Assembly (NCBI GenBank): GCA_026712335.1
Contig: GCA_026712335.1_4695.1
DNA: 41,974 bases
Source of the DNA: Escherichia coli
GTDB taxonomy: Bacteria > Pseudomonadota > Gammaproteobacteria > Enterobacterales > Enterobacteriaceae
Direction: 5' to 3' (one strand)
Position numbers and translations under genes: made by a program. The notes below the pieces were generated by a model that was not told where the DNA came from, searched no databases, and saw only the letters and a list, made by a program, of their open reading frames with translations. Of the stretch, positions 1 to 41,974 are shown piece after piece; within the stretch, counting starts at the first letter, position 1; each line of letters starts with the position of its first letter.

Positions 1-1
1 C

Positions 2-271
2 GTCAATAAGAATGCTGGGTGGGCTGAGGTCTGGAAAGGCTCTGCTGGTGGTGGTGTCTCGGTAGGTCTCTCACAGGATGTTCGTTGGAGAACCATCTGG
101 ATTCAGACCAATGGTCGCTGGAACGCCGTTCCTATTGGTGGCAATGCGGCTTACTTCATCTCGTCTGATGGTGGTTGGTTGAAGTTCACAATCTCCAACA
201 ACGGCAGAACTTTCCGTAACGACAAAGACGACCGTTCAGTCCCTACGCGAATCTTAGTTCAAAACCAATAA
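2..271 (+). CDS. 17: Tail fiber protein gp17, 3' fragment (overlap copy of 41511..41780, differs at 2 codons)
   Basis: Near-identical to the end of ORF 39855..41780; C-terminus resembles the T7 gp17 tip (KGSAGGGVSV...); stop TAA 269..271. Confidence 0.8.
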   Translation, partial: VNKNAGWAEVWKGSAGGGVSVGLSQDVRWRTIWIQTNGRWNAVPIGGNAAYFISSDGGWLKFTISNNGRTFRNDKDDRSVPTRILVQNQ

Positions 272-565
272 GGACAACATATAGACCACGGATGGTCTCA
301 ACAATAAGGAGGACACAATGTTGTCTTTAGATTTTAACANTCGCTGGAACGCCGTTCCTATTGGTGACAATGCGGCTTACTTCATCTCGTCTGCTGGTGG
401 TTGGTTGAAGTTCACAATCTCCAACAACGGCAGAACTTTCCGTAACGACAAAGACGACCGTTCAGTCCCTACGCGAATCTTAGTTCAAAACCAATAAGGA
501 CAACATATAGACCACGGATGGTCTCAACAATAAGGAGGACACAATGTTGTCTTTAGATTTTAACA
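115..565. repeat. Direct duplicate 115..339 = 341..565 with single N at 340 (scaffold overlap, probable artifact)
   Basis: Read directly: the two ~225 bp copies differ only at the two tail-fiber SNP positions; N at junction. Confidence 0.9.
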
Positions 566-750
566 ACGAGGTAGTGAAGGCTGCACCGATTGTAGGGACA
601 GGCGTAGCCGATGGTGCTGCCCGTCTGTTCTTCGGCCTGTCACTCAACGAGTGGTTCTATGTAGCCGCAATTGCCTACACAGTGGCTCAAATTGGTGCCA
701 AGGTAGTCGATGTGATTATCAAATGGAAGAAGGAGGGCAAAGATGTCTAA
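544..750 (+). CDS. 17.5: Type II holin gp17.5
   Basis: 68 aa, closely matches T7 gp17.5 (MLSLDFNNE...FGLSLNEWFYVAAIAYTV...); one TM segment; RBS AGGAGG upstream. Confidence 0.93.
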   Translation: MLSLDFNNEVVKAAPIVGTGVADGAARLFFGLSLNEWFYVAAIAYTVAQIGAKVVDVIIKWKKEGKDV

Positions 751-1012
751 CGATAAATCATTAATCCAATTCCTTGAGATGCTGGATACTGAGATGGCTC
801 AACGTATGCTGAAAGACCTTCAGGATGACGATAAGCGCACACCTCAACTGTACAACGCAATCGGGAAACTGTTAGAGCGCCACAAGTTCCAAGTCTCCAA
901 GTTACAGCCAGACCGTAACATCCTTGGTGGACTGGCAGATGGACTCGAAGAGTACCAGAACATGGTAGGTGCCGATGGTCTCACTGAAGATGAGAAGTAC
1001 ACGCTGAACTGA
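743..1012 (+). CDS. 18: Terminase small subunit gp18
   Basis: 89 aa, same length and clear similarity to T7 gp18 (SLI.FLEMLDT.MAQRML.DL...LGGLA..LEEY); start overlaps holin stop. Confidence 0.92.
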   Translation: MSNDKSLIQFLEMLDTEMAQRMLKDLQDDDKRTPQLYNAIGKLLERHKFQVSKLQPDRNILGGLADGLEEYQNMVGADGLTEDEKYTLN

Positions 1013-1020
1013 TGGAATAA

Positions 1021-1065
1021 CTCAAGGCCACTACATCTAGTGGTCTTTATGATATTTCAACACAA
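1021..1065 (+). promoter_or_regulatory. Putative RNase III processing hairpin upstream of Rz (second copy ~1227..1271)
   Basis: Hairpin of the T7 R-site type (CTCAAGG...TCTTTATGAT); position equals T7 R18.5. Confidence 0.45.
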
Positions 1066-1448
1066 CTCACGGTGACGCTACGTGAAATCTGAAAATACGG
1101 GAGGGTAGTTATGCTCAAGAATTTAAAGAGCTACGCCATAATCGCTGCGTTTGCCTTGGGTATTACCCTTGCGTATAACCACGGATATGACAAAGCTAAC
1201 ACTAAATGGGAACAGGAGGTGCACAATGAGTACGTTAAGAAANTAGTGGTCTTTATGATATTTCAACACAACTCACGGTGACGCTACGTGAAATCTGAAA
1301 ATACGGGAGGGTAGTTATGCTCAAGAATTTAAAGAGCTACGCCATAATCGCTGCGTTTGCCTTGGGTATTACCCTTGCGTATAACCACGGATATGACAAA
1401 GCTAACACTAAATGGGAACAGGAGGTGCACAATGAGTACGTTAAGAAA
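1038..1448. repeat. Direct duplicate 1038..1242 = 1244..1448 with N at 1243 (scaffold overlap)
   Basis: Read directly; duplicates the Rz start region. Confidence 0.9.
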
Positions 1449-1760
1449 GTTAAGGCGACTGAGGATAAACAGATTGCTATCAATGAAGTCTCACGACAAT
1501 ACCAAGAAGACCTTGCGGCGCTGGAAGGCAGCACTGATAGGGTCATTAATGATTTGCGTAACGATGGTAAGCGCTTGCGCGTCAAACTATCAGCCACCTC
1601 ACGAGAACTCCAAGCTAACGGTGGATGCCTCGTTGATGGTCGAGCCGAACTTGACGAAGAGTTTAGTAAGCGTCTTATCGGAGTAACTCAAAGAGGGGAT
1701 GCGTGGATTAAGGCGCTCCAAAATACAATAACTGAAATGCAATCTAAGAAGGAGAAATAA
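1317..1760 (+). CDS. 18.5: Rz-like spanin (inner-membrane subunit) gp18.5
   Basis: 147 aa; N-terminal TM helix; strong similarity to T7 gp18.5 (KWKQEVHNEYVK...YQEDLAALEGSTDR...GRAELD...GDAWI.ALQ.TI.E.Q); a duplicated start also at 1111. Confidence 0.9.
   Translation: MLKNLKSYAIIAAFALGITLAYNHGYDKANTKWEQEVHNEYVKKVKATEDKQIAINEVSRQYQEDLAALEGSTDRVINDLRNDGKRLRVKLSATSRELQANGGCLVDGRAELDEEFSKRLIGVTQRGDAWIKALQNTITEMQSKKEK
1432..1686 (+). CDS. 18.7: Rz1-like outer-membrane lipoprotein spanin gp18.7, embedded in Rz in the +1 frame
   Basis: Internal ATG of ORF 1357..1686 preceded by GGAGG; MSTLRKLR...WKAALIGSLMICV..SAC lipobox-like; matches T7 gp18.7 (SLMVEPNLT). Confidence 0.85.
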   Translation: MSTLRKLRRLRINRLLSMKSHDNTKKTLRRWKAALIGSLMICVTMVSACASNYQPPHENSKLTVDASLMVEPNLTKSLVSVLSE

Positions 1761-1761
1761 T

Positions 1762-2319
1762 ATGGCTACTACAAACTCAAGAACCCGCACACTATGGACC
1801 ATCAATGGTCGCTCGCCAGACAGTCGTGATGTGTATGACCTCAACAATATTGGTATTCGTGTTGGGCGTATCGACATCCCAGCTTCGGAGATGGTTAAGG
1901 TAGAGGGGTACTCTAAGGTTGAATACGTTGTTCAACTTAGCGATGGCACCACTGAGCAACATGCTACGTTCGAGACCCTTATGTCCACTTGGGGTGGCTC
2001 CGTCGAGTCTAAACCGGGTAGCGGGTTCATGACGGTGTTCCTGAATGAGCAAAGCGCTGAGCGACTCGGTATGGTTCGAATCGACGTATACAAAGAGTGG
2101 ACTGGTGCTGACCCTGAACCTGAAGGTGGTATGGCTTCCTTAGTTGGTGCAACGCTTTCTGCGTCTGATAGTGAATTTGGTACACAGTTCGTGGACAGCG
2201 AAGGGAAGAGCGCTTCCGTTATGTTCCAACCTAGTAACATCGACGGGGCTGTATCTAAGACCGACACTATCAAGGCTCTAGAGAAGCGCATTGCTGCCTT
2301 AGAGAAACCTGCCAAGTAA
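1762..2319 (+). CDS. Hypothetical protein (185 aa) between Rz and large terminase; no counterpart in T7 that I recall
   Basis: Clean ORF with strong RBS AAGGAG 8 nt upstream; TAATATG junction with Rz stop; no recognisable motif. Confidence 0.65.
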   Translation: MATTNSRTRTLWTINGRSPDSRDVYDLNNIGIRVGRIDIPASEMVKVEGYSKVEYVVQLSDGTTEQHATFETLMSTWGGSVESKPGSGFMTVFLNEQSAERLGMVRIDVYKEWTGADPEPEGGMASLVGATLSASDSEFGTQFVDSEGKSASVMFQPSNIDGAVSKTDTIKALEKRIAALEKPAK

Positions 2320-2334
2320 CAATAGGAGGCCACA

Positions 2335-4092
2335 ATGTCTACTCAAGCAAACAAGAATGCGCTCATCGTGGCGCAACTTAAGGGTGACTTCGTGGCCTTC
2401 CTGTTCGTCTTATGGAAGGCTCTGAACTTACCTAAACCAACCAAGTGTCAGATTGATATGGCACGTACACTCGCTAACGGCGACCACAAGAAGTTTATCC
2501 TTCAGGCGTTCCGTGGTATCGGCAAGTCCTTTATCACCTGTGCGTTCGTCGTGTGGGTCTTATGGCGAGACCCTCAACTTAAGGTTCTCATCGTGTCTGC
2601 CTCTAAGGAACGTGCTGATGCTAACTCCATCTTCATCAAGAACATCATCGACCTCCTTCCGTTCCTCTCTGAGTTGAAACCTCGACCGGGACAGCGTGAC
2701 TCCGTGATTAGCTTCGATGTTGGCTTGGCTAAACCCGACCACTCACCCTCTGTGAAGTCTGTAGGTATCACTGGTCAGTTAACTGGTAGCCGTGCTGACA
2801 TCATTATCGCAGATGACGTTGAGGTTCCCGGTAATAGCTCTACGAGTTCTGCTCGTGAGAAGCTCTGGACGTTGGTAACTGAGTTCGCTGCATTACTTAA
2901 GCCGCTGCCTACCTCTCGTGTTATCTACCTTGGCACACCTCAAACTGAGATGACGCTCTACAAGGAACTTGAGGATAACAAAGGGTACAGCACAGTAATC
3001 TGGCCAGCACAGTATCCACGTAATGACGCTGAGGCTCTCTATTATGGCGACCGACTGGCTCCTATGCTCAAGCAAGAGTATGATGAAGGCTATGAGTTAC
3101 TTCGCGGTCAACCTACTGACCCTGTTCGATTCGATATGGATGACCTCCGTGAACGTGAACTCGAATATGGTAAAGCTGGCTACACACTTCAGTTCATGCT
3201 TAACCCGAACCTTAGTGATGCCGAGAAGTACCCGCTACGACTCCGTGATGCTATCGTGTGCGCTGTGGACCCTGAACGTGCCCCATTGTCTTACCAGTGG
3301 TTGCCGAACCGTCAGAACCGCAATGAGGAACTCCCTAACGTTGGTCTGAAGGGTGACGACATCCATGCGTTCCATACGTGCTCTTCTCGTACCGCTGAGT
3401 ATCAGTCTAAGATTCTGGTCATTGACCCAAGTGGTCGTGGTAAGGATGAGACCGGGTACGCAGTCCTCTACTCACTTAATGGTTATATCTACTTGATGGA
3501 AGTCGGTGGGTTCCGTGGTGGTTACGATGATGCTACCCTAGAGAAGCTCGCTAAGAAGGCCAAGCAGTGGAAGGTACAGACAGTAGTCCACGAGTCCAAC
3601 TTCGGTGACGGTATGTTCGGTAAGATTTTCTCTCCGATTCTCCTGAAGCACCATAAGTGTGCCTTAGAGGAAATCCGTGCTAAGGGCATGAAGGAGATGC
3701 GAATCTGCGATACTATCGAACCGTTGATGGGTGCCCACAAGCTGGTCATTCGTGATGAGGTTATCCGTGAGGACTACCAGACTGCTCGTGACCTTGATGG
3801 GAAACATGATGTCCGCTACAGTGCGTTCTATCAGATGACCCGTATGACCCGTGAGCGAGGCGCTGTGGCACACGATGACCGCATTGATGCTATCGCATTG
3901 GGTATCGAGTTCCTTCGTGAAGGGATGCTTGTGGACAGCCGTGTAGGTGAAGAAGAGATGACCCTTGAGTTCCTTGAACACCACATGGAGAAACAGACCA
4001 TTGGTGGTGATGCTATCCATAGCTACGATGTTGGTGGCGTGGACATCTACTATGAGGATGATGGAGACTCTAGCTGCTTCATTGAGTGGTAA
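2335..4092 (+). CDS. 19: Terminase large subunit gp19
   Basis: 585 aa; near-collinear with T7 gp19; Walker A FRGIGKS; RBS AGGAGG. Confidence 0.97.
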
Positions 4093-4179
4093 TAGATAAG
4101 TATGCGGGAAAGGTGCATAGGTAAGCACTTAGTACCGCTACGTTACCGTTAAGTAACTTACTGATATACATGAAGAAAT

Positions 4180-4202
4180 TAATACGACTCACTATTGGGA
4201 AG
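4180..4202 (+). promoter_or_regulatory. Phage RNAP promoter (phiOR-like)
   Basis: TAATACGACTCACTATT GGGAAG; 17/17 to the internal consensus. Confidence 0.8.
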
Positions 4203-4358
4203 GGCACCCTAAGACAACTTAAAGACACTTAAAGACTGCATATGCAAAGTGCATACTTAGTGACTAACTCTTAGAGACCTTACAGTGAGGGATGATGGTA
4301 ATAGTAATTACATCCCTACTATCAGTGTAACCATCAAGTATAACAAGGAGGACGCTCT

Positions 4359-4514
4359 ATGCGCTTACTATCCGTGCTCAAGACACTGGCAACGCATCGA
4401 GTGACCTACAAATTTCTCGTTGTACTTGCTGCTTCCATTGGCCTCGCATCTAGTGCTGAACACATCGGTGAACTGGAGACTCTGCTTTGTTCTCTACTCA
4501 CTTGTGTTTCTTAG
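4359..4514 (+). CDS. Small hypothetical protein (51 aa), gene 19.5 position
   Basis: ATG with strong RBS AAGGAGG; downstream of phiOR-like promoter; below the ORF-track size cutoff. Confidence 0.5.
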   Translation: MRLLSVLKTLATHRVTYKFLVVLAASIGLASSAEHIGELETLLCSLLTCVS

Positions 4515-4589
4515 ACTACTCATTGGCGCTTAGTGCGCTCTTAGTGATTATGGTCGATATTCATCTTCCCTATAATCACTGTAAGAAGT

Positions 4590-5060
4590 CAACTCTAAGA
4601 GTAACCCTTATGTACCCTCTATGGTCTACAGGGTCTCTTAGGGTCTCTCACGTAGTCTCACCTTATGATATAGCCTCTGTGGTTAACCTTATGAGACTTG
4701 ATGTACCCCTTTAAGAATCCTACAGAAAAATCTGAGTGAGTATCTCATAGTTCATAAACACCGAGTCCCCCCCCCTATGGCCTCCTTCAGTCCACCCAAA
4801 GAGCCTTCCTCTATGGTAACTCATGGTTTACCTGAAGTCAATCCTTTTGTGAGACATTGGGTTAACTCTAGGTGTAACCACTAGATATTGTGCTTAGTGA
4901 TACCTTATGACCACTATATGTAGTCCTCTCTGTGTCCCTATCTGTAAGTGACCCTAGAGTTATCACCTTATGTCACCTCCTTATGTCTATCCTTATGGCT
5001 GCCTATCCTTATGTTAACCTTCAGTCAGTGCCTTATGTTTATCAGTGACCAATAGGCTTC
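4590..5060. repeat. Terminal-region array of CCTTATG heptamers (at least 8 copies), analogous to the CCTAAAG array at T7 ends
   Basis: Read directly: ACCTTATGA, CACCTTATG, TCCTTATG (x3), GCCTTATG etc.; noncoding; contains a T7 left-end-like motif TCTCATAG at 4743. Confidence 0.7.
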
Positions 5061-5443
5061 GTCACAAAGGGAAATCACTATCTCACTCTGTTTAGCAGTC
5101 CCTGNCCCCCCCCCTATGGCCTCCTTCAGTCCACCCAAAGAGCCTTCCTCTATGGTAACTCATGGTTTACCTGAAGTCAATCCTTTTGTGAGACATTGGG
5201 TTAACTCTAGGTGTAACCACTAGATATGGTGCTTAGTGATACCTTATGACCACTATATGTAGTCCTCTCTGTGTCCCTATCTGTAAGTGACCCTAGAGTT
5301 ATCACCTTATGTCACCTCCTTATGTCTATCCTTATGGCTGCCTATCCTTATGTTAACCTTCAGTCAGTGCCTTATGTTTATCAGTGACCAATAGGCTTCG
5401 TCACAAAGGGAAATCACTATCTCACTCTGTTTAGCAGTCCCTG
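4767..5443. repeat. Direct duplicate 4767..5104 = 5106..5443 with N at 5105, beginning at a C9 homopolymer (scaffold overlap or doubled terminal repeat)
   Basis: Read directly; copies differ by one SNP (T at 4889 vs G at 5228). Confidence 0.85.
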
Positions 5444-5516
5444 AGTGATGAGAGGGACAAGTAGAATCGACTGAGTGCCTATAGTGCCTTAAAGGTGGCT
5501 GATAGTCAATAGCCTT

Positions 5517-5539
5517 TAATGCGACTCACTATTGAGGAA
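5517..5539 (+). promoter_or_regulatory. Phage RNAP promoter-like element (phiOL-like, origin-associated)
   Basis: TAATGCGACTCACTATT GAGGAA; deviates at -13 and +2. Confidence 0.6.
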
Positions 5540-5570
5540 TAGCTAATACTGGTCATCCTCTCTTTATGTC

Positions 5571-5600
5571 CACTATAAGAGACTATAAGAGACTATAAGA
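5571..5600. repeat. Tandem 10-bp repeat (C/G)ACTATAAGA x3 downstream of the phiOL-like promoter
   Basis: Read directly; position corresponds to the T7 primary origin region. Confidence 0.7.
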
Positions 5601-5640
5601 CCACTTAAAGAGAGACTTTGAGATTCTTTAAGATTGAGGG

Positions 5641-5669
5641 TTGACATTGATAATAGCTTATGAGACTAT
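5641..5669 (+). promoter_or_regulatory. Putative host sigma70 early promoter (A1-like)
   Basis: -35 TTGACA at 5641; 17-nt spacer; weak -10 GACTAT. Confidence 0.45.
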
Positions 5670-5775
5670 AGCAACCGTTGAGAGACACAGCGCTACCAAC
5701 CACTAGACAAGACCTAGAGTTATCTGGTGAGGCGGGAATGTCTCAAGTAGTCATCAACCAGACACACGAAAGTGG

Positions 5776-5804
5776 TTGACTCAACGAAAGCAATAACGTA
5801 GTAT
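5776..5804 (+). promoter_or_regulatory. Putative host sigma70 early promoter (A2-like)
   Basis: -35 TTGACT, 17-nt spacer, -10 TAGTAT. Confidence 0.65.
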
Positions 5805-5814
5805 AGCAGTCGTC

Positions 5815-6267
5815 AACAACTGGTCGCCCTCTGAAACAACATGAGGTGTCACGGTGAGAAACAAAAGTAGTTGACAAGTAGCAACAACAAGATGTAAGAT
5901 GTACGACATAACGTTCTTGTGAAGTCCTACACTGAAAGGGACTCGGTGCTAACAAACCTGCACTTAAAGCTCTTTAACAATTTGGTGACAATAGCACTCT
6001 TGAGATGGCGGCACTAGCGATTAACTCAAGGTGACTCGAANAACAACTGGTCGCCCTCTGAAACAACATGAGGTGTCACGGTGAGAAACAAAAGTAGTTG
6101 ACAAGTAGCAACAACAAGATGTAAGATGTACGACATAACGTTCTTGTGAAGTCCTACACTGAAAGGGACTCGGTGCTAACAAACCTGCACTTAAAGCTCT
6201 TTAACAATTTGGTGACAATAGCACTCTTGAGATGGCGGCACTAGCGATTAACTCAAGGTGACTCGAA
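5815..6267. repeat. Direct duplicate 5815..6040 = 6042..6267 with N at 6041 (scaffold overlap)
   Basis: Read directly; duplicates the A3-like promoter. Confidence 0.9.
5871..5900 (+). promoter_or_regulatory. Putative host sigma70 early promoter (A3-like; duplicate copy at 6098..6127)
   Basis: -35 TTGACA, 18-nt spacer, -10 TAAGAT. Confidence 0.65.
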
Positions 6268-6292
6268 AGAGAAGCCTTTATGATAATCACTG
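6247..6292 (+). promoter_or_regulatory. Putative RNase III site (R0.3-like)
   Basis: AACTCAAGGTGACTC...GCCTTTATGATAATCAC hairpin, same family as T7 R0.3. Confidence 0.5.
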
Positions 6293-6315
6293 TAACCAAC
6301 ATCGAGGCAATCATC

Positions 6316-6774
6316 ATGATTCACACTAAAGAGCAAGCTAATGTTTTCTATGTACTGGTAAGCGCATTCCGTTCTAACCTCGACGATGAGGTCAACATGA
6401 GTCGCCACCGCCACATGGTTAACAACCTGCGCAACGCACCGGGTCTTTATGGTAGCGTTGAGTCTACCGATTTAACTGGCTGTTACCGCGAAGCCATCTC
6501 AAGTGCACCAACTGAAGAGAAAACAATCCGTGTACGTTGTAAAGACAAGGCACAGGTTCTCAATGTCGCACGTCTGGCATGTAATGAGTGGGAACAAGAT
6601 TGCGTGCTGGTCTATAAATCACAGACTCACACGGCTGGCTTAGTGTACGCTAAAGGCATCGACGGGTACAAAGCTGAACGTCTACATGGTAGCTTCCAAG
6701 AAGTCCCACGCACCGAGGCACTGAAAGGCTGCTTCACTATTGATGAGTTCGGTCGCCGCTGGCAAGTACAGTAA
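6316..6774 (+). CDS. 0.3: S-adenosylmethionine hydrolase/lyase (T3-type gene 0.3, anti-restriction)
   Basis: 153 aa from the internal ATG with RBS GAGG; strong match to T3 SAMase as recalled (ANVFYVLVSAFRSNL...YKSQTHTAGLVYAKGIDGYKAERL...FTIDEFGRRWQVQ); unrelated to T7 Ocr. Confidence 0.85.
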   Translation: MIHTKEQANVFYVLVSAFRSNLDDEVNMSRHRHMVNNLRNAPGLYGSVESTDLTGCYREAISSAPTEEKTIRVRCKDKAQVLNVARLACNEWEQDCVLVYKSQTHTAGLVYAKGIDGYKAERLHGSFQEVPRTEALKGCFTIDEFGRRWQVQ

Positions 6775-6780
6775 GTGATA

Positions 6781-6826
6781 AACTCAAGGTCGCTCAATAT
6801 GAGTGGCCTTTCATGATTATCATTTA
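6781..6826 (+). promoter_or_regulatory. Putative RNase III site
   Basis: AACTCAAGGTCGCTC...GTGGCCTTTCATGATTATCA hairpin. Confidence 0.55.
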
Positions 6827-6847
6827 ACATGCAATAGGACTAACACC

Positions 6848-7048
6848 ATGAGTAAACTTCTGGCAACATCTAAAATCAAAGGTCAATGCACTGTAACACT
6901 GCGAGAGTATGATCACGGGGCAATGGGTAGCACCTACGTTGTACGATACGGTAAACAAGTCACGCATTGGGTGAACGAGGTTTTGGCGCAGGAAGAATAC
7001 CAAGCCTGCGTGATACACCAAGCAACATGTGCAGGCTGGAATGACTGA
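6848..7048 (+). CDS. Hypothetical early protein (66 aa)
   Basis: Internal ATG of ORF 6803..7048; lies between RNase III sites in the early region. Confidence 0.5.
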   Translation: MSKLLATSKIKGQCTVTLREYDHGAMGSTYVVRYGKQVTHWVNEVLAQEEYQACVIHQATCAGWND

Positions 7049-7093
7049 TGGCGCGATTTGCACGCACTGGACAATAGCCTTTTAGTCTAACCA

Positions 7094-7140
7094 GTGATAA
7101 ACTCAAGGTCGCTCCTAGCGAGTGGCCTTTATGATTATCA
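7094..7140 (+). promoter_or_regulatory. Putative RNase III site
   Basis: AAACTCAAGGTCGCTCCTAGCGAGTGGCCTTTATGATTATCAC, identical in form to the T7 R0.5 hairpin. Confidence 0.6.
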
Positions 7141-7169
7141 CTTTTGAAACAACGCACGGGATTAATATC

Positions 7170-7307
7170 ATGCTGAAACATTACGTTATGCCTATCCATA
7201 CCAAGAACGGCGCTACAGTTTGCACACCTGATGGCTTCGCAATGAAACAGCGAATCGAACGCCTTAAGCGTGAACTGCGCACCAACCGCAAGCTCAACAA
7301 CATCTAA
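7170..7307 (+). CDS. gp0.6-like small early protein
   Basis: 45 aa MLKHYVMPIHTKNGATVCTPDGFAMKQRIERLKREL... matches T7 gp0.6A as recalled. Confidence 0.7.
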   Translation: MLKHYVMPIHTKNGATVCTPDGFAMKQRIERLKRELRTNRKLNNI

Positions 7308-7332
7308 ATCTAACTAAATAGGACACAATCTA

Positions 7333-8418
7333 ATGAACTACACCGACATTCAGGCACGTCTGGAAATCATCAAGTCTCTTCCGATTAGTGACTTGGACAA
7401 GCGCCAGCCTCTTCTGGTTGCACTGGCTGCTGACATCGTGAACGGTGAAACATGCGATGGTAACGATACAAACGGGTCGCAGTGTCTTGAGTATCAGGAC
7501 TGGTGGAACACCTTGGGCGCTCTCATGCGTGATGCAGGTTTTCGTATGTTGGGTAATGGTCATTTTAGTGCGGCCTACTCGCACGAAATGTTACCGGGTC
7601 GAGTCATCAAGGTTGGCTTTAAGAAAGAGGATTCAGGCGCAGCATACACTGCATTCTGTAGGATGCACCAAGGCCGAGCGGGTATCCCTAACATCTATCA
7701 CGTAGCACGTCATGCAGGTTGCTATACGGTCGTACTGGACCGCTTACATAGCTGTGACGACGATAATTATGACCATGAGGTATACGCTGACCTCGCACGT
7801 TACTTTGTGGAGTCGGATTGCCATGACGCAAGCGACTTTGCACCGGGTGACTACGAGTTCATCGAGACTTGCAAAATGATTCGTGAGTTCTTCAAAGGGA
7901 TTGCATCTTTCGACATGCACAGCGGGAACATTATGTTCGACGATAACGATGTTCCGTACATCACTGACCCAGTCAGCTTCTCACATGACCGTGAACGTGA
8001 GGACGGTTTCCCTCTGGACCCTGAAGCACTGCTGGCCGAGGTCGAGGCTGTAGCGCAAGAACGCATGATTGAACGATGTCGCAACCGCAAGGCCAAGCGT
8101 GACCCTAACGGCTCCTTTCAGGTTAACCGCAAGGCCGCAATGAAACGCCGCAAGCGTAACCGTAAGTTACACGTCAAAGGTATGGCACAGTTTGTTAAAG
8201 GTCGCATCGAACGCAGGGCCATTGATAGGAACGAACGCCGCGCTGAGATGCTCATGGGGTCTGCATGGAATAACTTCTGGTTCCGCAATGGTCCCTCAGC
8301 GGCACGCAAGGTTGAACAAGTGAACGGCCTCAAGTGGCAACTAGGGGACCGCCTAGCAATCCAAGCGGGTCTCCCTCTGAACATTGACAAGTTACTTGAC
8401 GCACAACTGCAAGGCTGA
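7333..8418 (+). CDS. 0.7: Serine/threonine protein kinase / host shutoff protein gp0.7
   Basis: 361 aa; collinear with T7 gp0.7 (GNGHFSAAYSH...VIKVGFKKEDSGAAYTAFCRM...FDMHSGNIMF...VPYITDPVSFS). Confidence 0.93.
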   Translation: MNYTDIQARLEIIKSLPISDLDKRQPLLVALAADIVNGETCDGNDTNGSQCLEYQDWWNTLGALMRDAGFRMLGNGHFSAAYSHEMLPGRVIKVGFKKEDSGAAYTAFCRMHQGRAGIPNIYHVARHAGCYTVVLDRLHSCDDDNYDHEVYADLARYFVESDCHDASDFAPGDYEFIETCKMIREFFKGIASFDMHSGNIMFDDNDVPYITDPVSFSHDREREDGFPLDPEALLAEVEAVAQERMIERCRNRKAKRDPNGSFQVNRKAAMKRRKRNRKLHVKGMAQFVKGRIERRAIDRNERRAEMLMGSAWNNFWFRNGPSAARKVEQVNGLKWQLGDRLAIQAGLPLNIDKLLDAQLQG

Positions 8419-8427
8419 TAAGGTGTA

Positions 8428-8470
8428 TCTTCAAGGTCGGCACTGACTGCTGGCCTTTATAGATAAACTT
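8428..8470 (+). promoter_or_regulatory. Putative RNase III site (R1-like)
   Basis: Hairpin TTCAAGGTCGGCACTGACTGCTGGCCTTTATAGATAAAC upstream of gene 1. Confidence 0.55.
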
Positions 8471-8491
8471 TCTTAACAACGTGAGGCAACA

Positions 8492-24078: not shown

Positions 24079-24354
24079 ATGTGCTTTTCACCAAAGATTA
24101 AGACACCTAAAGTAAAGACTGAATCCATCCGAGCTATCGACCCTGCTCCACTGACTGAGGAACCGAAAGGTATTCTCTTTGGTGGCGAAGAGGACAATGA
24201 TAGCGGAACCTCTTCTGAGGTGCCAACGGGTGGCAAGAAGTCCCTGAAGGTGAAACTGGATGACTCCGTTGAGAAGTCCAAGAAGGCAGACTCCGATGCT
24301 GCCAAGAAGAAGTCTAAATCTGGTATCCGTACCAGTATCTTTAAGAAGAAATAA
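24079..24354 (+). CDS. 6.7: gp6.7 (virion-associated protein)
   Basis: 91 aa; N-terminus MCFSPKIKTPK identical to T7 gp6.7. Confidence 0.85.
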   Translation: MCFSPKIKTPKVKTESIRAIDPAPLTEEPKGILFGGEEDNDSGTSSEVPTGGKKSLKVKLDDSVEKSKKADSDAAKKKSKSGIRTSIFKKK

Positions 24355-24368
24355 ATAGGAGGTCTATC

Positions 24369-27475: not shown

Positions 27476-28519
27476 ATGGCTAGCATGAATGGTGGACAAC
27501 AGATGGGTAAAGACCAAGGTAAAGGTATGAGCGCTGGTGATAAACTGGCTCTGTTCCTGAAGGTCTTCGGTGGTGAAGTTCTGACTGCATTTACCCGTAC
27601 CTCCGTAACTATGAACAAACACCTTGTTCGCTCTATCCAGTCCGGTAAGTCCGCGCAGTTCCCTGTGCTGGGTCGTACCAAAGCTGCTTACCTGCAACCG
27701 GGTGAGAACCTCGATGACAAACGTAAAGACATGAAGCACACTGAGCGTACCATTAACATTGATGGTCTGCTGACTGCTGACGTTCTGATTTACGACATCG
27801 AAGACGCAATGAACCACTATGACGTGCGCTCCGAGTATACCGCACAGTTGGGTGAATCTCTTGCGATGGCTGCTGATGGCGCGGTTCTGGCTGAAATGGC
27901 TAAACTGTGTAACCTGCCGTCTGCGTCTAACGAGAACATCGCTGGTCTCGGTAAGGCTCATGTACTGGAAGTTGGCAAGCAGTCTGAGCTTCGGGGAGAC
28001 CAAGTTAAGCTGGGTCAGGCTATTATCGCACAGTTAACTCTGGCTCGTGCCAAGCTGACTGGCAACTATGTTCCGTCTGCTGACCGTGTGTTCTACACCA
28101 CTCCAGACAACTACTCTGCTATTCTGGCTGCTCTGATGCCTAACGCTGCAAACTATCAGGCTCTGATTGACCCGTCTACTGGCTCTATCCGCAACGTTAT
28201 GGGCTTCGAAGTTATTGAGGTTCCGCATCTGACTGCTGGTGGTGCTGGCGAAGACCGTCCAGAAGAGGGTGCAAATCCGACTGGTCAGAAACATGCGTTC
28301 CCTGAGACTTCCTCTGGTGACACCCGTGTTGCTCTGGACAACGTTGTCGGTCTGTTCAATCACCGCTCTGCCGTTGGTACTGTTAAGCTGAAAGATATGG
28401 CACTGGAACGTGCTCGTCGAGCTAACTTCCAAGCAGACCAGATTATCGCTAAGTATGCTATGGGTCACGGTGGTCTGCGCCCTGAAGCATGTGGTGCGCT
28501 GGTTTTCAACAAGGCTTAA
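27476..28519 (+). CDS. 10: Major capsid protein gp10A
   Basis: 347 aa; N-terminus [11 protein letters not shown] and the body near-identical to T7 gp10A. Confidence 0.98.
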   Translation: MASMNGGQQMGKDQGKGMSAGDKLALFLKVFGGEVLTAFTRTSVTMNKHLVRSIQSGKSAQFPVLGRTKAAYLQPGENLDDKRKDMKHTERTINIDGLLTADVLIYDIEDAMNHYDVRSEYTAQLGESLAMAADGAVLAEMAKLCNLPSASNENIAGLGKAHVLEVGKQSELRGDQVKLGQAIIAQLTLARAKLTGNYVPSADRVFYTTPDNYSAILAALMPNAANYQALIDPSTGSIRNVMGFEVIEVPHLTAGGAGEDRPEEGANPTGQKHAFPETSSGDTRVALDNVVGLFNHRSAVGTVKLKDMALERARRANFQADQIIAKYAMGHGGLRPEACGALVFNKA

Positions 28520-35133: not shown

Positions 35134-38100
35134 GTGGATAAGTATAACCCGAACGAATCGCATGAATATGATGCGTTATTTCAACAAGCTGCTGACACAC
35201 ATGGAGTCTCCTATGGCCTTCTTCGGAAGGTCGGTTGGGTAGAGTCCCGCTTTAAACCTACGGCTCAATCACCAACAGGGCCACGAGGTGTCATGCAGTT
35301 CACTAAGGCAACTGGTCAGGCTTATGGTCTCCAGAACGATGAGGACTTCGCTGACCCGGCTAAGTCCATTGATGCTGGTGCTCGTTACCTTGCAGACCTC
35401 GTTAAGAAATACAATGGGGATGAACTTAAAGCTGCCCTAGCGTACAACCAAGGTGAAGGGAGCAACGGTAAGCCACAACTGGAAGCCTACGATTCTGGTA
35501 ACTTTGCTGGCATCGGTGATGAAGGTCGTAACTATCTGCGTTCACTTCTGGATGTCGCTAAGTCACCTAAGAGTGGGGACATCGAGTCATTCGGTGGTAT
35601 CACCCCAAAGGGTAAAGGGATTCCGTTTGATGCTGCGATGAGTGGTATCGGGAAGAAAGGAAAGGTAACAACTGAACTCCCTGAGTCTCACGAAATGTCC
35701 TTTCAAGGTAAAGAACAGGCCGCTCCCAATCAGCCGTTCGGAAAAGATTATTGGGAAGCCAAAGGTACAACTCTTGACGAAGCAAACGAGCGTTCAACCT
35801 TCTTCGGATTCGGTAGTGCTGCTGAAGCAGAACTCTCAAACTCAACCTTGGGTGTTGCCTTCCGTGCTGGTAAGCGTGACAATGGTTTTGATGTGCTCAC
35901 TGATGTACTTCAACCGACACGGTTTAACAGCCACATTTGGTCGCCTGAAGAACTCGATAAGATTCGCAAAGAAGTGAAGAACCCTGCGTACATGAACGTT
36001 GTGCTTGGTGGTTCCGCTGAGAACCTTGACGAGCTAATCAAGATGGCTAATGAGAACTTCGAGTTGGACTCTAAGGCTGCTGATGCGGGTCTAGGTGCCA
36101 AGCTGTCTGCTGGTCTTATTGGTGCTGGTGTTGACCCGTTGACCTACGTTCCTATCGCTGGGACTGCGGCTAAAGGGTTCAAGCTGGTTAACAAGGCGTT
36201 GATTGTAGGTGCTCAAGCTGGTGCACTTAACGTTGCCTCTGAAGGTCTGCGTACATCGGTTGCTGGTGGTGATGCACATTATGCTGAAGCTGCCCTTGCT
36301 GGGATGTTACTGGCTGGTGGACTGACTTCTGTGGCAGATGGCGTTGCTGCGGGTCTCCGTAAGTCTGGTGCTGAACAGATTGAGAACCCCTTTGCTGCTG
36401 CACAGATGCGCTTTGAGACTCGTGAGACTGCACGTAACACTGGTGGTTATGACGCAAGCCGTATGCCTCCTAGTGAAGACCGAGTGTTCTCACAGCACAA
36501 CGGCGTTGAGTATGCACCACTGGAAACTGAACCGGGTGCTGTAGTGTTGCGTGATGGTTCCATTATCAGTGACACAAACTTGGCTAACCCGATGACAGCC
36601 AAAGAGTTCGAAGAAGTAGACCCTGAACGTGCTGCGTGGGGCTTGCCTATGCGTGGATTGAGTGAAATCGGCTTGAGGACTTTACGTTCTGAACATGCTG
36701 AAATCCGTGGTCTCGCTAAGGACTTAGTGCGTTCACCTACAGGTATGGAGTCAGGCTCACATGGTAAGTTTGGTTCCACTACATCGGACATCATAGAGCG
36801 ACTGCGCAGTCTCAATCATCGAACCTACAATAACCTATATGGTGCAATGAAGGAAGCGATGGCTGACCCTGAGTGGTCTGTTGGTATGTTCAAGAGTGGT
36901 GCTCAAGGTGCCCGTCAACAAATCTATCGTCGTACTAGTGAGGCTATCGAGAGACCTGAACTTCAGGCCAACTTGACCAAGGCAGAACGTAAGGTGATGG
37001 ACATCGTGAAGGAACACTATGACCTCAAGCGTGAGATGATGGAGAACCCGTCGATGTTCGGTAACAAGGCCACCTCTATCTTCCCTAACAGTCGTCACAA
37101 AGGGACTTACGTTCCTCATGTGTACTCACGGGAAGCCAAGCAGTTGTACTCACAGGCTCTTGGGGGCACTGATGGTTTACAGGAAGCAGTTGCTGCAAGC
37201 CTGATGGCATCATATCATGCACGCCCTGAAGTTAAGGCCCGTATTGATGAGATGCTGGCAGAGCAGTTACGGGTATCCAAACCAGCGGGTAAGACTGCGG
37301 GTACTACACCCAATAAGCCCTCTTCTGTCAACACAGCAAGTTACCAGATGAAACTGGACGATACAGCTACACAGGCAAGTGATAAGGTATTGGAACTAAA
37401 AGACGTCATGACCAACGCTGAGAAGCGAGTTGCGGACCGTGAAAGGAAACTCCAGAACTCCAAGGACAGACTGGCTTCGCATGAGGCTAAACTGAAGGAG
37501 TTGGAAGAAAAACTAGCTGCTAAACCTAATAGCAAAACCATTCCTGTTAAGATTGAGAGCCGGAAGCAGATGATTGAGACCCAGAAGTCTCACATCCGTA
37601 TTAACACAGAGCGTCTCGACTACATGAAAGGACAGGCTGCTAAGGTCCAAGACAGAATCACCAAAGCAACCGCCGAAGCTGAGGAAGCCGCCTCTGCTGC
37701 CAAAGGGCAGAAGACTACTGGTGGCGGTGAAGACACTATCGTTGGTGAAGCCACATCGGGTAATGCACCTCAATCAGTACAAGAGGTGACTATGGATATG
37801 GTCGAGAAGTACGCTATGGACAAGGCTTACGGTATTACGAAGACCGATGAGTTCAACTCTTCAAGTGTCATTGACGATAACATTGAGGGTCTCGTTGGGA
37901 TTGAGAACAACTCATTCCTTGAAGCCCGTAACCTGTTTGATTCTGACGTGCCAATCACTCTACCGAACGGGCAACAGTTCTCTGTGAATGACCTCCGTGA
38001 CTTCGATATGAAGCATGTGATGCCAGCATATGACCGCCGTGTTGATGGTGATATTGCTATCATGGGAGGCACAGGTAAGACTACTGCTGAACTCAAGGAC

Positions 38101-39782
38101 GCTATTATGGCTCTTGATAAGAAGTCTGAAGGTAAAGGTACAATGAAAGGTGAAGTGGAAGCACTTAAGGATGTCGTTAAGATTGNGTGAATGACCTCCG
38201 TGACTTCGATATGAAGCATGTGATGCCAGCATATGACCGCCGTGTTGATGGTGATATTGCTATCATGGGAGGCACAGGTAAGACTACTGCTGAACTCAAG
38301 GACGCTATTATGGCTCTTGATAAGAAGTCTGAAGGTAAAGGTACAATGAAAGGTGAAGTGGAAGCACTTAAGGATGTCGTTAAGATTGTCACTGGTCGTG
38401 CTCGACGCAATCAGGATACTGTAGGTGACACTATGGTCCGTGCTCTGTCCGATATGTCCTTCTTCACGAAGAACGCATATATGGGCTTGCAGAACCTAAC
38501 CGAAATCTCCGGTATGTTGCAGAAGGGTAATATCCGTGCGATGCTTCATGGCATTCCGGTACTGCGTGACTTAGCGTTCCGCAACAAGCCAGTCTCTGGT
38601 AGTGAACTCAAAGAACTCCACTCTATGGTGTTCGGTAAAGAGTTTGATGACTTAGTCCGACCTACTCGTCAAGACATCATTCAGCGACTCCGTGAGTCCA
38701 CTGATACACCTGATGTTGCCGCAAAGGTTGTTGGTTCTATCAAGCACACAACTCAAGAACTGGCGGCTCGCTCACCTCTCACCAAGTTCCTCAATGGTAC
38801 GTCAAACTACCTTCTGGACATGGCCCGACAGGGTGTGATGGGTGATGTGGTAACTCATGCTATCACTGGAAAGGGTGCCAACAAGTGGATTAAAGGTGAC
38901 ATGTTGAAGTCTGCGAGTATCTCTAAGGAACAGTGGGAAGGCATTCAGGCTCTCATCCGTGAGAACGTTACCCGTGGGGAAGATGGTAAGTTTACCTTCA
39001 AGGATAAGAAGGCTCTGGCTAATGACCCTCGTGCTATGGACTTGTGGCGTTTGGCTGACAAGGTTGCTGATGAAACGATGCTTCGACCTCATAAGGTTTC
39101 CTTACAGGATTCCCATGCGTTTGGTGCCACCGCTAAGTTAGTCCTTCAGTTTAAGTCGTTTGTCATCAAGTCGATGAACTCTAAGTTTATCCGCTCCGGT
39201 CACGAAGCCTTTAAGAACCAGCGTGCTATGGACATGGCGCTGACCTATGCAATCTCTGGTGGTATCGCTGGCTCCTACTATGTGGCACAGGCCCACTTGA
39301 AGGCTGCTGGTCTTCCTAAAGAGCAACAGAAGGATTACTTGAAGAAAGCTCTCGACCCGAAGATGATTGCCTACGCTGCGGCCTCCCGAAGTTCACACTT
39401 AGGGTCGCCTCTGAGTATCGCTAACTTCGCTATGGGTGCTGCTGGTTACGACCAAGGTCTTATGGTTCGCTCTACGATTCTACCGAAAGGTGATGACAAG
39501 CGTGAGCGCAACAAGGCGGTGACTTCTCGTGACATGGGTGATTCCATTATGGGCGCTATTGGTGAACAGGTTCCTGCTCTTGGCTTCGCTGGTGCTGCTC
39601 TAGCTACTGGTCGAAATGCTTATGGTGTCCTTACGGCTCCTAACAAACCGACCGAGCGTGAGATGATGACTGGCTTAATGAATGCTCACCGAGAGATGAT
39701 TCCTAACGATCCAATCTCTCAACAGATGCTCATTAAGTTCTATGAGGCCAACGGTGTTCACATTAAGGCTGACAAGAAGTAA
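35134..39782 (+). CDS. 16: Internal virion protein D gp16 with N-terminal lytic transglycosylase domain (ORF split by duplication artifact 37984..38388; about 1481 aa after de-duplication; GTG start)
   Basis: ORFs 35134..38190 and 38187..39782 together are collinear with T7 gp16; SLT motifs ESRF...MQFTKAT...AYNQGEG; C-terminus YEANGV; removing one 203-bp copy restores frame. Confidence 0.95.
37984..38388. repeat. Direct duplicate 37984..38185 = 38187..38388 with N at 38186 inside gp16 (scaffold overlap artifact)
   Basis: Read directly; copies identical; period 203 is not a multiple of 3. Confidence 0.92.
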
Positions 39783-39783
39783 A

Positions 39784-39806
39784 CAATACGACTCACTATT
39801 GGGAAG
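39784..39806 (+). promoter_or_regulatory. Phage RNAP promoter (phi17-like, late)
   Basis: CAATACGACTCACTATT GGGAAG. Confidence 0.8.
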
Positions 39807-39854
39807 GCTCTCACAGCTTCCCTCCTATTATATCTAACCGAAAGGAGGCTACAG

Positions 39855-41780
39855 ATGGCTAACAAAATTTCCACTGTACGTACTTACCCGCTGAACGGTG
39901 CCGTGAACTTCACGATTACCTTTGAGTATTTAGCACGTAAGTTCGTCCAAGTGACACTCATCGGGAAAGACCGTAAAGAGTTGGTTCTCAATCAGGACTA
40001 TCGCTTTACCACTAAGACCCAAATCACAACCTCCCGTGCGTGGACTGCTGCCGATGGTTATCAGATGATTGAGATTCGTCGATTCACTTCTGCAACCGAC
40101 CGTCTGGTTGACTTTGCTGATGGCTCAATCCTTCGTGCGTATGACCTTAACATCTCACAGATTCAGACGCTGCACGTAGCTGAAGAGGCACGAGACCTAA
40201 CTGCGGATACCATTGGTGTCAACAATGATGGTCACTTGGATGCCCGTGGTCGTAAGATTGTGAACCTAGCGTTCGCTACCAGTGACTACGATGCTGTCCC
40301 TCTGAAGCAAGTAAAAGAGCGCGAGTCGTCTGCTTGGAACGCTGTTAACAAGGCCAATGAACACGCTAACCGCTCTAACACTGAGGCTAACCGATCGCGA
40401 GATGAAGCTGACCGTGCAAAACGTGAAGCTGACCGCTCAACCCAACAGGCAGGTGTCTCTACGGCACAGGCGGTTGAGTCCAAGAAGCAAGCTGACCGTT
40501 CCAACTCTGAGGCTAACCGAGCTAAAGGTTATGCTGATAGTATGACCGCAAGTGTAGCTGAGGCCAAGAAGCAAGCTGACCGTTCTAACTCTGAGGCCAA
40601 TCGTGCCCGTGATGAGGCCAATCGTGCTGCCGGAGAAGTGACTAAGGCTGCTGCTGAGGTTGCCAAAGCCGCTGCACACGTTGCTACCGCTGATGGACAT
40701 GCTGACAGAGCCAACACTGAGGCAAACCGCTCCAAGAGTGAAGCTGACCGTGCAAAGACCGAGGCTGACAAGTTAGGGAATATGAATAACTTAGCGGGAA
40801 CCATTAAAGCGGTTAATGGTGAGAACGTTGTTTTTAAGAATGATGTTGTAGCACCCGGACAGATTACTGGTGAAAAGGAAGTAAGGGCTGGCGCAGGTCA
40901 ATCGTTTAGCGTGTTAACAAGGAACTCGTTGCAGCTTGTGAACCAGAACTTCGCTGATAGAAATATGAGGTTCTTCGTATGGGGGAATGACCAAGGACGT
41001 GCAAACGTATTTGAGTTAGGTGGTAGCGGTAATGGGTACTATATGTATATCCAGAAGGCTAACCTTAACGACACATTTTGCCAGATGCGAGTGAATGGAC
41101 ATATGGAGGCTGCTGGTGGGCTTACGGTTGGACAATCAGGTGACTTCACTGGAATCTTACAGACTCGCTCACAGAACCTGCTGATGATTAACTCTGCTCG
41201 TCGACATATTCAAATGAAAACCAGCGATAACTACACCGATGGTTATCTTTACAAAGACCCCGGCGCTGGGGCGTGGAGGCTTAACTTTGGTCAGGCAGCT
41301 AACAGGGAGTATACGTTTGATTCAAATGGTACATTAACATCCAACTCAGGCTGGTACATTCCACCAGATGGTAACTTATACATCACGAAGTATGATTCTT
41401 ACATCGACGGTTGGGTCAACAAACGCCTTGGAGAACATGCCTACAATAAAAGCGAAGTAAACAACCTAGTCAATGGACGGTTAACTCAAGCGCAAGCTGA
41501 TGGTCGATACGTCAATAAGAATGCTGGGTGGGCTGAGGTCTGGAAAGGCTCTGCTGGTGGTGGTGTCTCGGTAGGTCTCTCACAGGATGTTCGTTGGAGA
41601 ACCATCTGGATTCAGACCAATGGTCGCTGGAACGCCGTTCCTATTGGTGACAATGCGGCTTACTTCATCTCGTCTGCTGGTGGTTGGTTGAAGTTCACAA
41701 TCTCCAACAACGGCAGAACTTTCCGTAACGACAAAGACGACCGTTCAGTCCCTACGCGAATCTTAGTTCAAAACCAATAA
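39855..41780 (+). CDS. 17: Tail fiber protein gp17 (641 aa, with expanded central repeat region)
   Basis: N-terminal domain FEYLARKFV.VTLIG.DRK...DGSILRAYDLN..QIQT.HVAEEARDLT.DTIGVNNDGHLDARGR.IVNLA and C-terminal tip match T7 gp17. Confidence 0.96.
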   Translation: MANKISTVRTYPLNGAVNFTITFEYLARKFVQVTLIGKDRKELVLNQDYRFTTKTQITTSRAWTAADGYQMIEIRRFTSATDRLVDFADGSILRAYDLNISQIQTLHVAEEARDLTADTIGVNNDGHLDARGRKIVNLAFATSDYDAVPLKQVKERESSAWNAVNKANEHANRSNTEANRSRDEADRAKREADRSTQQAGVSTAQAVESKKQADRSNSEANRAKGYADSMTASVAEAKKQADRSNSEANRARDEANRAAGEVTKAAAEVAKAAAHVATADGHADRANTEANRSKSEADRAKTEADKLGNMNNLAGTIKAVNGENVVFKNDVVAPGQITGEKEVRAGAGQSFSVLTRNSLQLVNQNFADRNMRFFVWGNDQGRANVFELGGSGNGYYMYIQKANLNDTFCQMRVNGHMEAAGGLTVGQSGDFTGILQTRSQNLLMINSARRHIQMKTSDNYTDGYLYKDPGAGAWRLNFGQAANREYTFDSNGTLTSNSGWYIPPDGNLYITKYDSYIDGWVNKRLGEHAYNKSEVNNLVNGRLTQAQADGRYVNKNAGWAEVWKGSAGGGVSVGLSQDVRWRTIWIQTNGRWNAVPIGDNAAYFISSAGGWLKFTISNNGRTFRNDKDDRSVPTRILVQNQ

Positions 41781-41826
41781 GGACAACATATAGACCACGG
41801 ATGGTCTCAACAATAAGGAGGACACA

Positions 41827-41974
41827 ATGTTGTCTTTAGATTTTAACAACGAGGTAGTGAAGGCTGCACCGATTGTAGGGACAGGCGTAGCCGATGGTGC
41901 TGCCCGTCTGTTCTTCGGCCTGTCACTCAACGAGTGGTTCTATGTAGCCGCAATTGCCTACACAGTGGCTCAAA
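41827..41974 (+). CDS. 17.5: Holin gp17.5, 5' fragment (wrap-around copy of 544..691)
   Basis: Identical to the start of ORF 544..750; window ends inside the gene. Confidence 0.85.
   Translation, partial: MLSLDFNNEVVKAAPIVGTGVADGAARLFFGLSLNEWFYVAAIAYTVAQ

Follow-up and report, generated by a model that had tools for sequence, protein, structure and literature searches.

Six N-separated duplications in a T7-like phage record from an Escherichia coli assembly are very probably unmerged contig overlaps

The stretch of DNA analysed here (41,974 nucleotides in all, referred to below as the window) raises the question of whether the direct duplications that interrupt it at six positions belong to the phage that it encodes or were introduced when the record was assembled. 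Exactly six characters in the window are not A, C, G or T; all are single Ns (positions 340, 1243, 5105, 6041, 9774 and 38186), and each sits without a spacer between two tandem copies that are 99.1–100% identical. Once these duplicates are set aside, the longest remaining self-match in the window is 52–59 bp at 85–90% identity, which excludes a chance origin. The N count and the alignment of the copies confirm the claim of an earlier note on this DNA that six Ns separate near-identical copies of 202–338 bp, and self-alignment bore out its statement that the tail, 41510–41974, repeats the head of the record (1 to ~690). In our view, both the duplications at the six Ns and the repeat of the head at the tail reflect an assembly artefact in which overlapping contigs were joined by an N and not merged; we place the probability of this reading at about 97%. 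The features are listed in Table 1.

Table 1. Positions of the joins, repeats and genes in the window.
Feature	Position	Strand	Description
Join 1	115–339 and 341–565, around N340		225 bp, period 226; 2 mismatches (141/367 G/A, 168/394 A/C); gp17 3' end and holin start
Join 2	1038–1242 and 1244–1448, around N1243		205 bp, period 206; exact; gp18/gp18.5 intergenic region and gp18.5 start
Join 3	4767–5104 and 5106–5443, around N5105		338 bp, period 339; 1 mismatch (4889/5228 T/G); non-coding
Join 4	5815–6040 and 6042–6267, around N6041		226 bp, period 227; exact; non-coding early region upstream of gene 0.3
Join 5	9564–9773 and 9775–9984, around N9774		210 bp, period 211; exact; within RNA polymerase gene
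Join 6	37984–38185 and 38187–38388, around N38186		202 bp, period 203; exact; within gp16
Wrap-around	41510–41974		465 bp, equal to the de-duplicated head (1–339 plus 566–691); circular closure inside gp17/holin
Piece c1	1–339	+	Wholly inside the end of the last piece, c7 (41510–41848); two sites differ
Terminal-repeat homologue	4743–4938	+	Homologue of the 194-bp direct repeat of Kvp1/BA14; TCTCATAGTT... to ...CTCTGTGTCCC; single copy
C9 homopolymer	4767–4775	+	Exactly where piece c4 (5106) starts; C8–C10 in siblings
T7-type single-subunit RNA polymerase gene	8492–11354	+	As-is 8492–9796 (434 aa) and 9765–11354 (529 aa); merged 883 aa
gp16, internal virion/ejectosome protein with N-terminal SLT transglycosylase domain	35134–39782	+	As-is 35134–38190 (1018 aa) and 38187–39782 (531 aa); merged 1,481 aa
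gp17 tail fibre	39855–41780	+	641 aa

The phage is a T7-like Berlinvirus (Autographiviridae, Studiervirinae) which is about 96% identical to Enterobacter phage PZJ0206. Over 20 kb it shares 94–96.6% identity with PZJ0206, 285P and BA14 and is collinear with them, and it has a single-subunit RNA polymerase (RNAP), a T7-like gene order and 12 T7-type promoters, all of which are on the + strand. PZJ0206 (MT625440) and Escherichia phage 285P (GQ468526), with 96.6 and 95.4% nucleotide identity over 20 kb, respectively, and coverage of about 100%, have the same gene order and an RNAP of 883 aa, but neither contains any of the duplications seen in the window. Compared with these two phages, mosaicism or divergence is seen in the C-terminal half of gp17, in the early region and in parts of gp16, and gp7.3 is 22 aa shorter. 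When the copies are merged, PZJ0206 and 285P each align through the joins at 340, 1243, 9774 and 38186 as one HSP, whereas the record as it stands gives two HSPs that overlap in the subject; 285P, Kvp1 and BA14 behave in the same way at 5105 and 6041.

Only two genes are broken by the joins, those for RNAP and gp16. The periods of the duplicates within them are, as the earlier note had claimed, not multiples of three, and both ORFs are split in the record as it stands. Collapsing the duplicates, a check proposed in that note, gave a full-length RNAP and an uninterrupted gp16, both of which are 100% identical to intact ORFs in another assembly, JAJCTR. The merged lengths match those of PZJ0206 (883 and 1,481 aa), from whose RNAP the merged enzyme has seven differences; the size of gp16 differs from that in T7. 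The joins at 340 and 1243 merely create partial additional copies of the gp17/holin and gp18.5 starts, and gp18.5 is found intact at 1317–1760. A 185-aa ORF in the adjacent region (1762–2319) has no Pfam hit and matches solely PHROG families of unknown function.

Five further NCBI assemblies (JAJCTU, JAJCTT, JAJCTQ, JAJCTP and JAJCTR; referred to as siblings) contain essentially the same phage at >99.9% identity. Outside the gp17 tip and gp7.3 (24369–24671), in which the siblings have differing in-frame deletions, only some two dozen positions in 40 kb separate them from the window. The merged form of each join is present in one to five siblings and the as-is form in none, such that these independent assemblies of the same genome hold one copy per join. 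The single-copy form of join 1 occurs at six loci in the five sibling assemblies, and JAJCTU010000048.1 (40,620 bp) crosses the six joins and the wrap-around, all in single copy, with the other siblings crossing subsets of them. The siblings also contain single-N joins of their own, with duplicates of 213–374 bp, at positions other than those in the window (window-equivalent 3948–4238, 4767–4979, 24282–24655, 27508–27741, 40559–40843, 41466–41736 and 41497–41869). Elsewhere in these assemblies a single N stands for about 55 bp of missing sequence, for a 4-bp overlap or for a single base, which indicates that this pipeline wrote an N at joins of any kind. Exact 36–38-mers, one of them across N9774, were absent from IMG/VR, metagenome contigs and GTDB genome contigs, and no record matched the gp17 of the window exactly. 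A search of the literature for the JAJCT accession series found no primary paper and no named assembler; all it yielded was the identity of a neighbouring record, JAJCTX, which is 'Ecl_5.VN', a K. pneumoniae ST340 from South Africa in 2021 (PMC11234735).

Removal of one copy and the N at each join leaves 40,562 bp, and subtraction of the 465-bp wrap-around gives a circular unit of 40,097 bp, in agreement with the earlier estimate of roughly 40.0 kb for the de-duplicated genome. The record is circularly permuted. In the wrap alignment, positions 1–339 match 41510–41848 with the two mismatches of join 1, and positions 341–691 match 41624–41974 exactly over 351 bp. The first piece, c1, is a redundant contig that carries an alternative haplotype of the gp17 tip and is not a link in the chain; it encodes G599/D608, against D599/A608 in c7.

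These observations can be explained if seven contigs (c1–c7), assembled from short reads of one T7-like phage, were strung together into a scaffold. The assembly graph would have behaved as a circle, closed by the terminal repeat and by reads from concatemers, and the contigs would have broken at several points with neighbours still overlapping by 202–351 bp. A joining step would have ordered and oriented them correctly but left the overlaps unmerged, with a single N as a marker, so that each overlap appears twice in the record and the final contig repeats sequence of the first two. Co-existing gp17-tip haplotypes may account for the breaks at join 1 and the wrap-around, and the length-variable C8–C10 tract near the physical left end may account for that at join 3. 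One JAJCTR piece begins at the same point as c4, at the C9 tract, which was the only notable sequence feature when the piece ends were inspected. The breaks at the remaining joins are possibly a result of low coverage. We do note that overlaps of 202–351 bp exceed the k − 1 overlaps of common de Bruijn assemblers, which counts against this account. SSPACE and ABySS put a single n where an expected overlap is not found. A literature search for a documented single-N convention for negative gaps found only general scaffolder logic, and a negative gap is merged by scaffolders only when the overlap is detected (PMC4076250).

Among the listed signs of false duplication is a gap that separates two duplicates on the same scaffold (Ko et al. 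2022, Genome Biol, PMC9516828). At all six Ns in the window the gap character lies flush between abutting copies, there are no further Ns, and merging makes the genes whole again and the sequence collinear with the relatives. As in the cases of Ko et al. (PMC9516828), the pairs share a scaffold with a gap between them, are fixed by collapsing and are a cause of false gene disruption or gain; c1 resembles their 'heterotype' kind, in which two haplotypes are kept as paralogues. Unlike their vertebrate genomes, the present example is a 40-kb phage contig set with contig-end overlaps of 200–350 bp joined by a single N. The restored ORFs, the relatives and the sibling assemblies all support the earlier proposal that contig-end overlaps were joined unmerged. 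The duplicates are an ordinary artefact and not a biological feature, with the exception of a probably real mixture of tail-fibre variants behind one join.

The practical use of this result lies in curation. Read literally, the record has a broken RNAP and gp16, spurious gene fragments, arbitrary ends and a length inflated by about 1.9 kb. As the single-N artefact is also present in at least five of the sibling assemblies at NCBI, any gene counts or 'duplications' taken from these would be wrong.

Could the copies instead be genuine tandem duplications, with the Ns as low-quality base calls at their junctions? They are near-perfect and strictly tandem, and T7-like phages placed under selection do acquire duplications of this tandem kind. 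However, this reading, which we consider extremely improbable, needs six independent events, each centred on one of the only six Ns in the record, and places an N at every junction. The periods of 211 and 203 bp would frameshift the essential RNAP and gp16, the near-identical siblings and all relatives have one copy, and the siblings show the same pattern of an N with a duplicate at other sites. T7-like genomes also carry direct terminal repeats, and either the 338-bp duplicate at 5105 or the 465-bp wrap-around might be such a repeat recorded twice through joined genome ends. The 338-bp copy is a size outlier, and its first base lies only 24 nt into the sequence homologous to the left end of Kvp1/BA14. 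This homologue (4743–4938) aligns end to end with the annotated 194-bp repeats of Kvp1 (FJ194439) and BA14 (EU734171) and shares their conserved TCTCATAGTT left end and ...CTCTGTGTCCC right end, but in contrast to them it is internal, present once and not among the reported duplicates. It takes the form of a concatemer junction, lying between right-end unique and left-end unique sequence, and is single and internal because the assembly was circularized. Piece c3 is unbroken across right-end unique sequence, the complete repeat homologue and 166 nt of left-end unique sequence before the N is reached, so the boundaries of the 338-bp duplicate match neither end of the repeat. The start of the duplicate coincides with the C9 homopolymer, and its end lies 166 nt beyond the homologue; it was rejected as a terminal repeat because of this mismatch with 4743–4938. 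The wrap-around falls within gp17/holin, some 3 kb away from the predicted ends, and neither it nor the 338-bp duplicate (4767–5104) has its copies at the physical ends. Moreover, JAJCTU is single copy through both the 5105 join and the wrap-around. That either of them is a terminal repeat is, in our judgement, barely conceivable. We predict that the virion ends lie at 4743 and 4938, with a terminal repeat of about 196 bp; as this repeat is internal and collapsed to one copy in the window, the virion DNA should be about 40.3 kb.

It is possible, but we think it rather unlikely, that the scaffold is a chimera of at least two co-existing phage variants, the merged sequence being a haplotype mosaic that corresponds to no single real genome. 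Such a reading is compatible with unmerged overlaps and would refine that explanation, not replace it. Piece c1 differs from c2 and c7 at two amino-acid-changing gp17 sites, both alleles of which recur in siblings, three gp17-tip haplotypes occur in one assembly (JAJCTP), and c3 and c4 are mismatched at 4889/5228. Against this, four of the six overlaps are exact, the siblings depart from the window at few sites outside the gp17 tip and gp7.3 (see above), and steps in identity to PZJ0206 occur throughout the single 28-kb piece c6. The joins were compared with mosaic boundaries against PZJ0206 and 285P, since coincidence would have pointed to a chimera; as identity steps are frequent within c6, a step near join 6 is no evidence of chimerism and was given no weight.

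With the joins read as unmerged overlaps, the variation at the gp17 tip can be considered in its own right. The tip is hypervariable both among and within the sibling assemblies. A stretch of 190 nt (41551–41740) contains 11 polymorphic sites among the copies and siblings, all with amino-acid-changing alleles, and two haplotypes are present in the window record. The sites form three patches which align with the BC, FG and HI loops of T7 gp17, the aligned T7 residues being S477/G479/G480, P511, I517/A518/D520 and A539/D540/S541. In a study of host-range substitutions in the tip domain of T7 gp17, G479, D520, D540, S541 and A539 are named as exterior-loop positions that drive specificity or give gain of function (Huss et al. 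2021, eLife, PMC8043750). The polymorphic residues of this fibre differ from the substitutions of Huss et al. in being natural or in-culture polymorphisms, observed in sequence among and within bacterial-isolate assemblies, in a Berlinvirus fibre of 641 aa. We are inclined, though only slightly, to the interpretation that the phage in the window sample, and in each sibling sample, is a mixture of variants in the course of diversifying at the gp17 receptor-binding tip. If so, a lytic T7-like phage would have been multiplying and adapting within a series of clinical Enterobacterales isolates, or passing from one to another, prior to their sequencing. The microdiversity of the tail-fibre tip is a modest clue to how phages may adapt in cultures of clinical isolates.

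Repeat finding, exact-match tests, local alignment and self-BLAST of the window were used to map its internal duplicates. The only non-ACGT characters are six single Ns (joins 1–6, parting pieces c1–c7), and at all six the copies abut the N on both sides, as listed in the table. In addition, the tail of the window repeats its head: 1–339 matches 41510–41848 with 2 mismatches and 341–691 is identical to 41624–41974. Self-BLAST returned no further self-match longer than 59 bp in the window, so chance is not an issue for the duplicates. The earlier note had described the six duplicates and this wrap, and all are present where it placed them.

Pieces, duplicates and variable features (window coordinates unless a locus or contig is named)
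Feature	Coordinates	Detail
c1	1–339	
c2	341–1242	
c3	1244–5104	
c4	5106–6040	
c5	6042–9773	
c6	9775–38185	
c7	38187–41974	
N340 copies	115–339, 341–565	225 bp, 2 mismatches
N1243 copies	1038–1242, 1244–1448	205 bp, 0 mismatches
N5105 copies	4767–5104, 5106–5443	338 bp, 1 mismatch
N6041 copies	5815–6040, 6042–6267	226 bp, 0 mismatches
N9774 copies	9564–9773, 9775–9984	210 bp, 0 mismatches
N38186 copies	37984–38185, 38187–38388	202 bp, 0 mismatches
Sibling duplicates (window-equivalent)	3948–4238, 4767–4979, 24282–24655, 27508–27741, 40559–40843, 41466–41736, 41497–41869	
gp17 tip, head copies	42–231, 367–457	sibling loci L007, L010–L015
gp17 tip, patch 1		S566Y, G568R, G569R
gp17 tip, patch 2		D599G, I605T, S606A, A608D
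gp17 tip, patch 3		K627Q, D628A, D629Y/N/V/A
gp7.3, siblings	L016 14438–14806, L017 14438–14707, L020 313–636	
Sibling JAJCTU010000048.1		40,620 bp
Sibling JAJCTR010000043.1		41,342 bp
Sibling JAJCTT		contigs 41, 49, 57
Sibling JAJCTQ		contigs 50, 52, 53
Sibling JAJCTP		contig 53
Sibling assemblies		GCA_026712295/305/325/415/435; JAJCTP–JAJCTU; loci L007–L020

By its sequence, the window represents a T7-like phage (genus Berlinvirus). A 20 kb portion shares 96.6, 95.4 and 94% identity with Enterobacter phage PZJ0206, Escherichia phage 285P and BA14, respectively, at ~100% coverage; the gene order is that of T7, and all 12 T7-type promoters lie on the + strand. Compared with virion DNA, the record is circularly permuted, starting with the 3' end of gp17, followed by holin, gp18, gp18.5 and gp19 (2335–4092), then the genome-end region and early genes 0.3, 0.7 and RNA polymerase (RNAP). 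Genes gp18.5 and gp19 are separated by a conserved 185-aa ORF (1762–2319, +) without a Pfam hit; its PHROG matches are all to function-unknown families (phrog_20446), and its counterpart in 285P is annotated 'unknown'.

As deposited, RNAP is split into 434 and 529 aa and gp16 into 1018 and 531 aa; the duplicate periods (211 and 203 bp, respectively) are not multiples of 3. Removing one copy and the N at each join restored full-length proteins, as the earlier note had anticipated; they measure 883 and 1,481 aa. PZJ0206 is annotated with the same two lengths, and both restored proteins are 100% identical to the intact JAJCTR ORFs. With the merged sequence, alignments to PZJ0206 and 285P pass through joins 340, 1243, 9774 and 38186 in one HSP, whereas with the unmerged record they break into two HSPs that overlap on the subject by the length of the duplicate. 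The same contrast was seen at joins 5105 and 6041 with 285P, Kvp1 and BA14.

Exact-protein look-ups showed that five NCBI WGS assemblies, here termed siblings, contain contigs of the same phage (>99.9% identity). In JAJCTU all six joins and the wrap are single-copy and read straight through. The single-copy form of each join occurs in one to five siblings (0–4 mismatches), and the duplicated junction in none of them. The single-N artefact itself is present in all siblings. Their own single Ns with 213–374-bp duplicates sit at positions other than those of the window, and further single Ns lie over a ~55-bp gap, over a 4-bp overlap, or replace exactly one base. From these other sites and varied contexts, the single N is a generic marker that the submitters' pipeline writes at joins, and the duplicates represent overlaps between contigs that were left unmerged. 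This reading fits a general rule of scaffolders under which a negative gap is merged only on overlap detection (PMC4076250). The gene, relative and sibling-assembly tests support the reading of the earlier note: the six duplicates are an assembly and scaffolding artefact and not a biological feature.

The Ns, the frameshifts and the siblings together rule out real tandem duplications. A terminal repeat was also considered for the 338-bp duplicate and the wrap. Kvp1 and BA14 carry annotated 194-bp terminal repeats, and alignment places their homologue at window 4743–4938 (TCTCATAGTTCATAAAC... to ...CTCTGTGTCCC), with right-end unique sequence before it and left-end unique sequence after it. The 338-bp duplicate starts 24 nt within this homologue and ends 166 nt past it; on these boundaries it is not the terminal repeat, and the wrap is rejected since it sits in gp17/holin. 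A mosaic of haplotypes is plausible as a refinement of the unmerged-overlap reading: c1 differs, and position 4889 has T where all other copies have G. Four of the overlaps, on the other hand, match exactly. Steps in identity relative to PZJ0206 are frequent within the single 28-kb piece c6, and are therefore no sign of chimerism.

The overlaps from c2 to c7 in succession are 205, 338, 226, 210 and 202 bp, a c7/c2 overlap of 351 bp closes the circle, and c1 is contained entirely in the end of c7. Pieces c2–c7 minus overlaps sum to 40,097 bp; subtracting the 465-bp wrap from the collapsed length of 40,562 bp gives the same value, in agreement with the roughly 40.0 kb proposed previously. The repeat homologue is in the concatemer-junction form, in one copy. 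With a single copy in the 40,097-bp unit, virion DNA is predicted to be ~40.3 kb (40,097 plus about 196), and the physical ends and ~196-bp terminal repeat would be internal to the record.

The causes of the contig breaks are inferred. Both c4 and a JAJCTR piece begin exactly at a C9 homopolymer (4767–4775; C8–C10 in siblings), and JAJCTP and JAJCTT41 break at 4736–4740, shortly before the predicted left end. Three sibling assemblies have contig breaks clustered within 30 nt of that end, beside the variable tract. Join 1 and the wrap fall in a hypervariable gp17 stretch; the breaks at 1243, 6041, 9774 and 38186 have no evident cause.

The value of the artefact lies in its consequence for curation, with microdiversity of the gp17 tip and gp7.3 as a side observation. 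When the window's three copies are compared with one another and with the siblings, 11 sites vary within 41551–41740 (190 nt), all with amino-acid-changing alleles, and the allele combination differs in nearly every copy. Two haplotypes occur in the window (c1 versus c2/c7) and three in JAJCTP. Given this variability, the best reading of c1 is as a contig of one haplotype within a mixed population. On alignment to the solved T7 gp17 tip (4A0T/7BOZ), the variants at 566–629 form three patches matching the BC, FG and HI loops (T7 S477/G479/G480, P511, I517/A518/D520 and A539/D540/S541). They include equivalents of G479, D520, A539, D540 and S541, exterior-loop positions that Huss et al. (PMC8043750) identify with host specificity or gain of function. 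The gp17 shaft (40357–40769) carries three diverged direct repeats of ~77 nt (64–74% identity) encoding a recurring ...EANR/ADR... motif.

The length of gp7.3 (24369–24671) varies among near-identical siblings via in-frame deletions: 122 aa in JAJCTR, PZJ0206 and 285P, 100 aa in the window (22 missing) and 89 aa in JAJCTT41 (22 + 11 missing). The deletions appear to have different end points. Outside these two regions, siblings and window differ at only some two dozen positions across the 40 kb, and the siblings are >99.9% identical to one another. The coding differences are nearly all amino-acid-changing (about 19, with 2 synonymous); among them are RNAP M418T and G424S, no more than 30 nt from the c5 end, and four differences in gp16. 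In JAJCTU, codon 519 of RNAP contains an N. The gp16 of the window and PZJ0206 (1,481 aa) is longer than that of 285P (1,315 aa). The additional ~166 aa (~37100–37700, about residues 660–860) are Lys/Glu/Ala-rich and coiled-coil-looking, with no nucleotide match in 285P.

Within one accession series, at least five WGS assemblies contain the same lytic T7-like phage on contigs of its own, a recurrence that suggests contamination in the laboratory, a carrier state or exposure of the isolates to phage. JAJCTX, a neighbouring accession, is listed as K. pneumoniae 'Ecl_5.VN' from South Africa, 2021 (PMC11234735).
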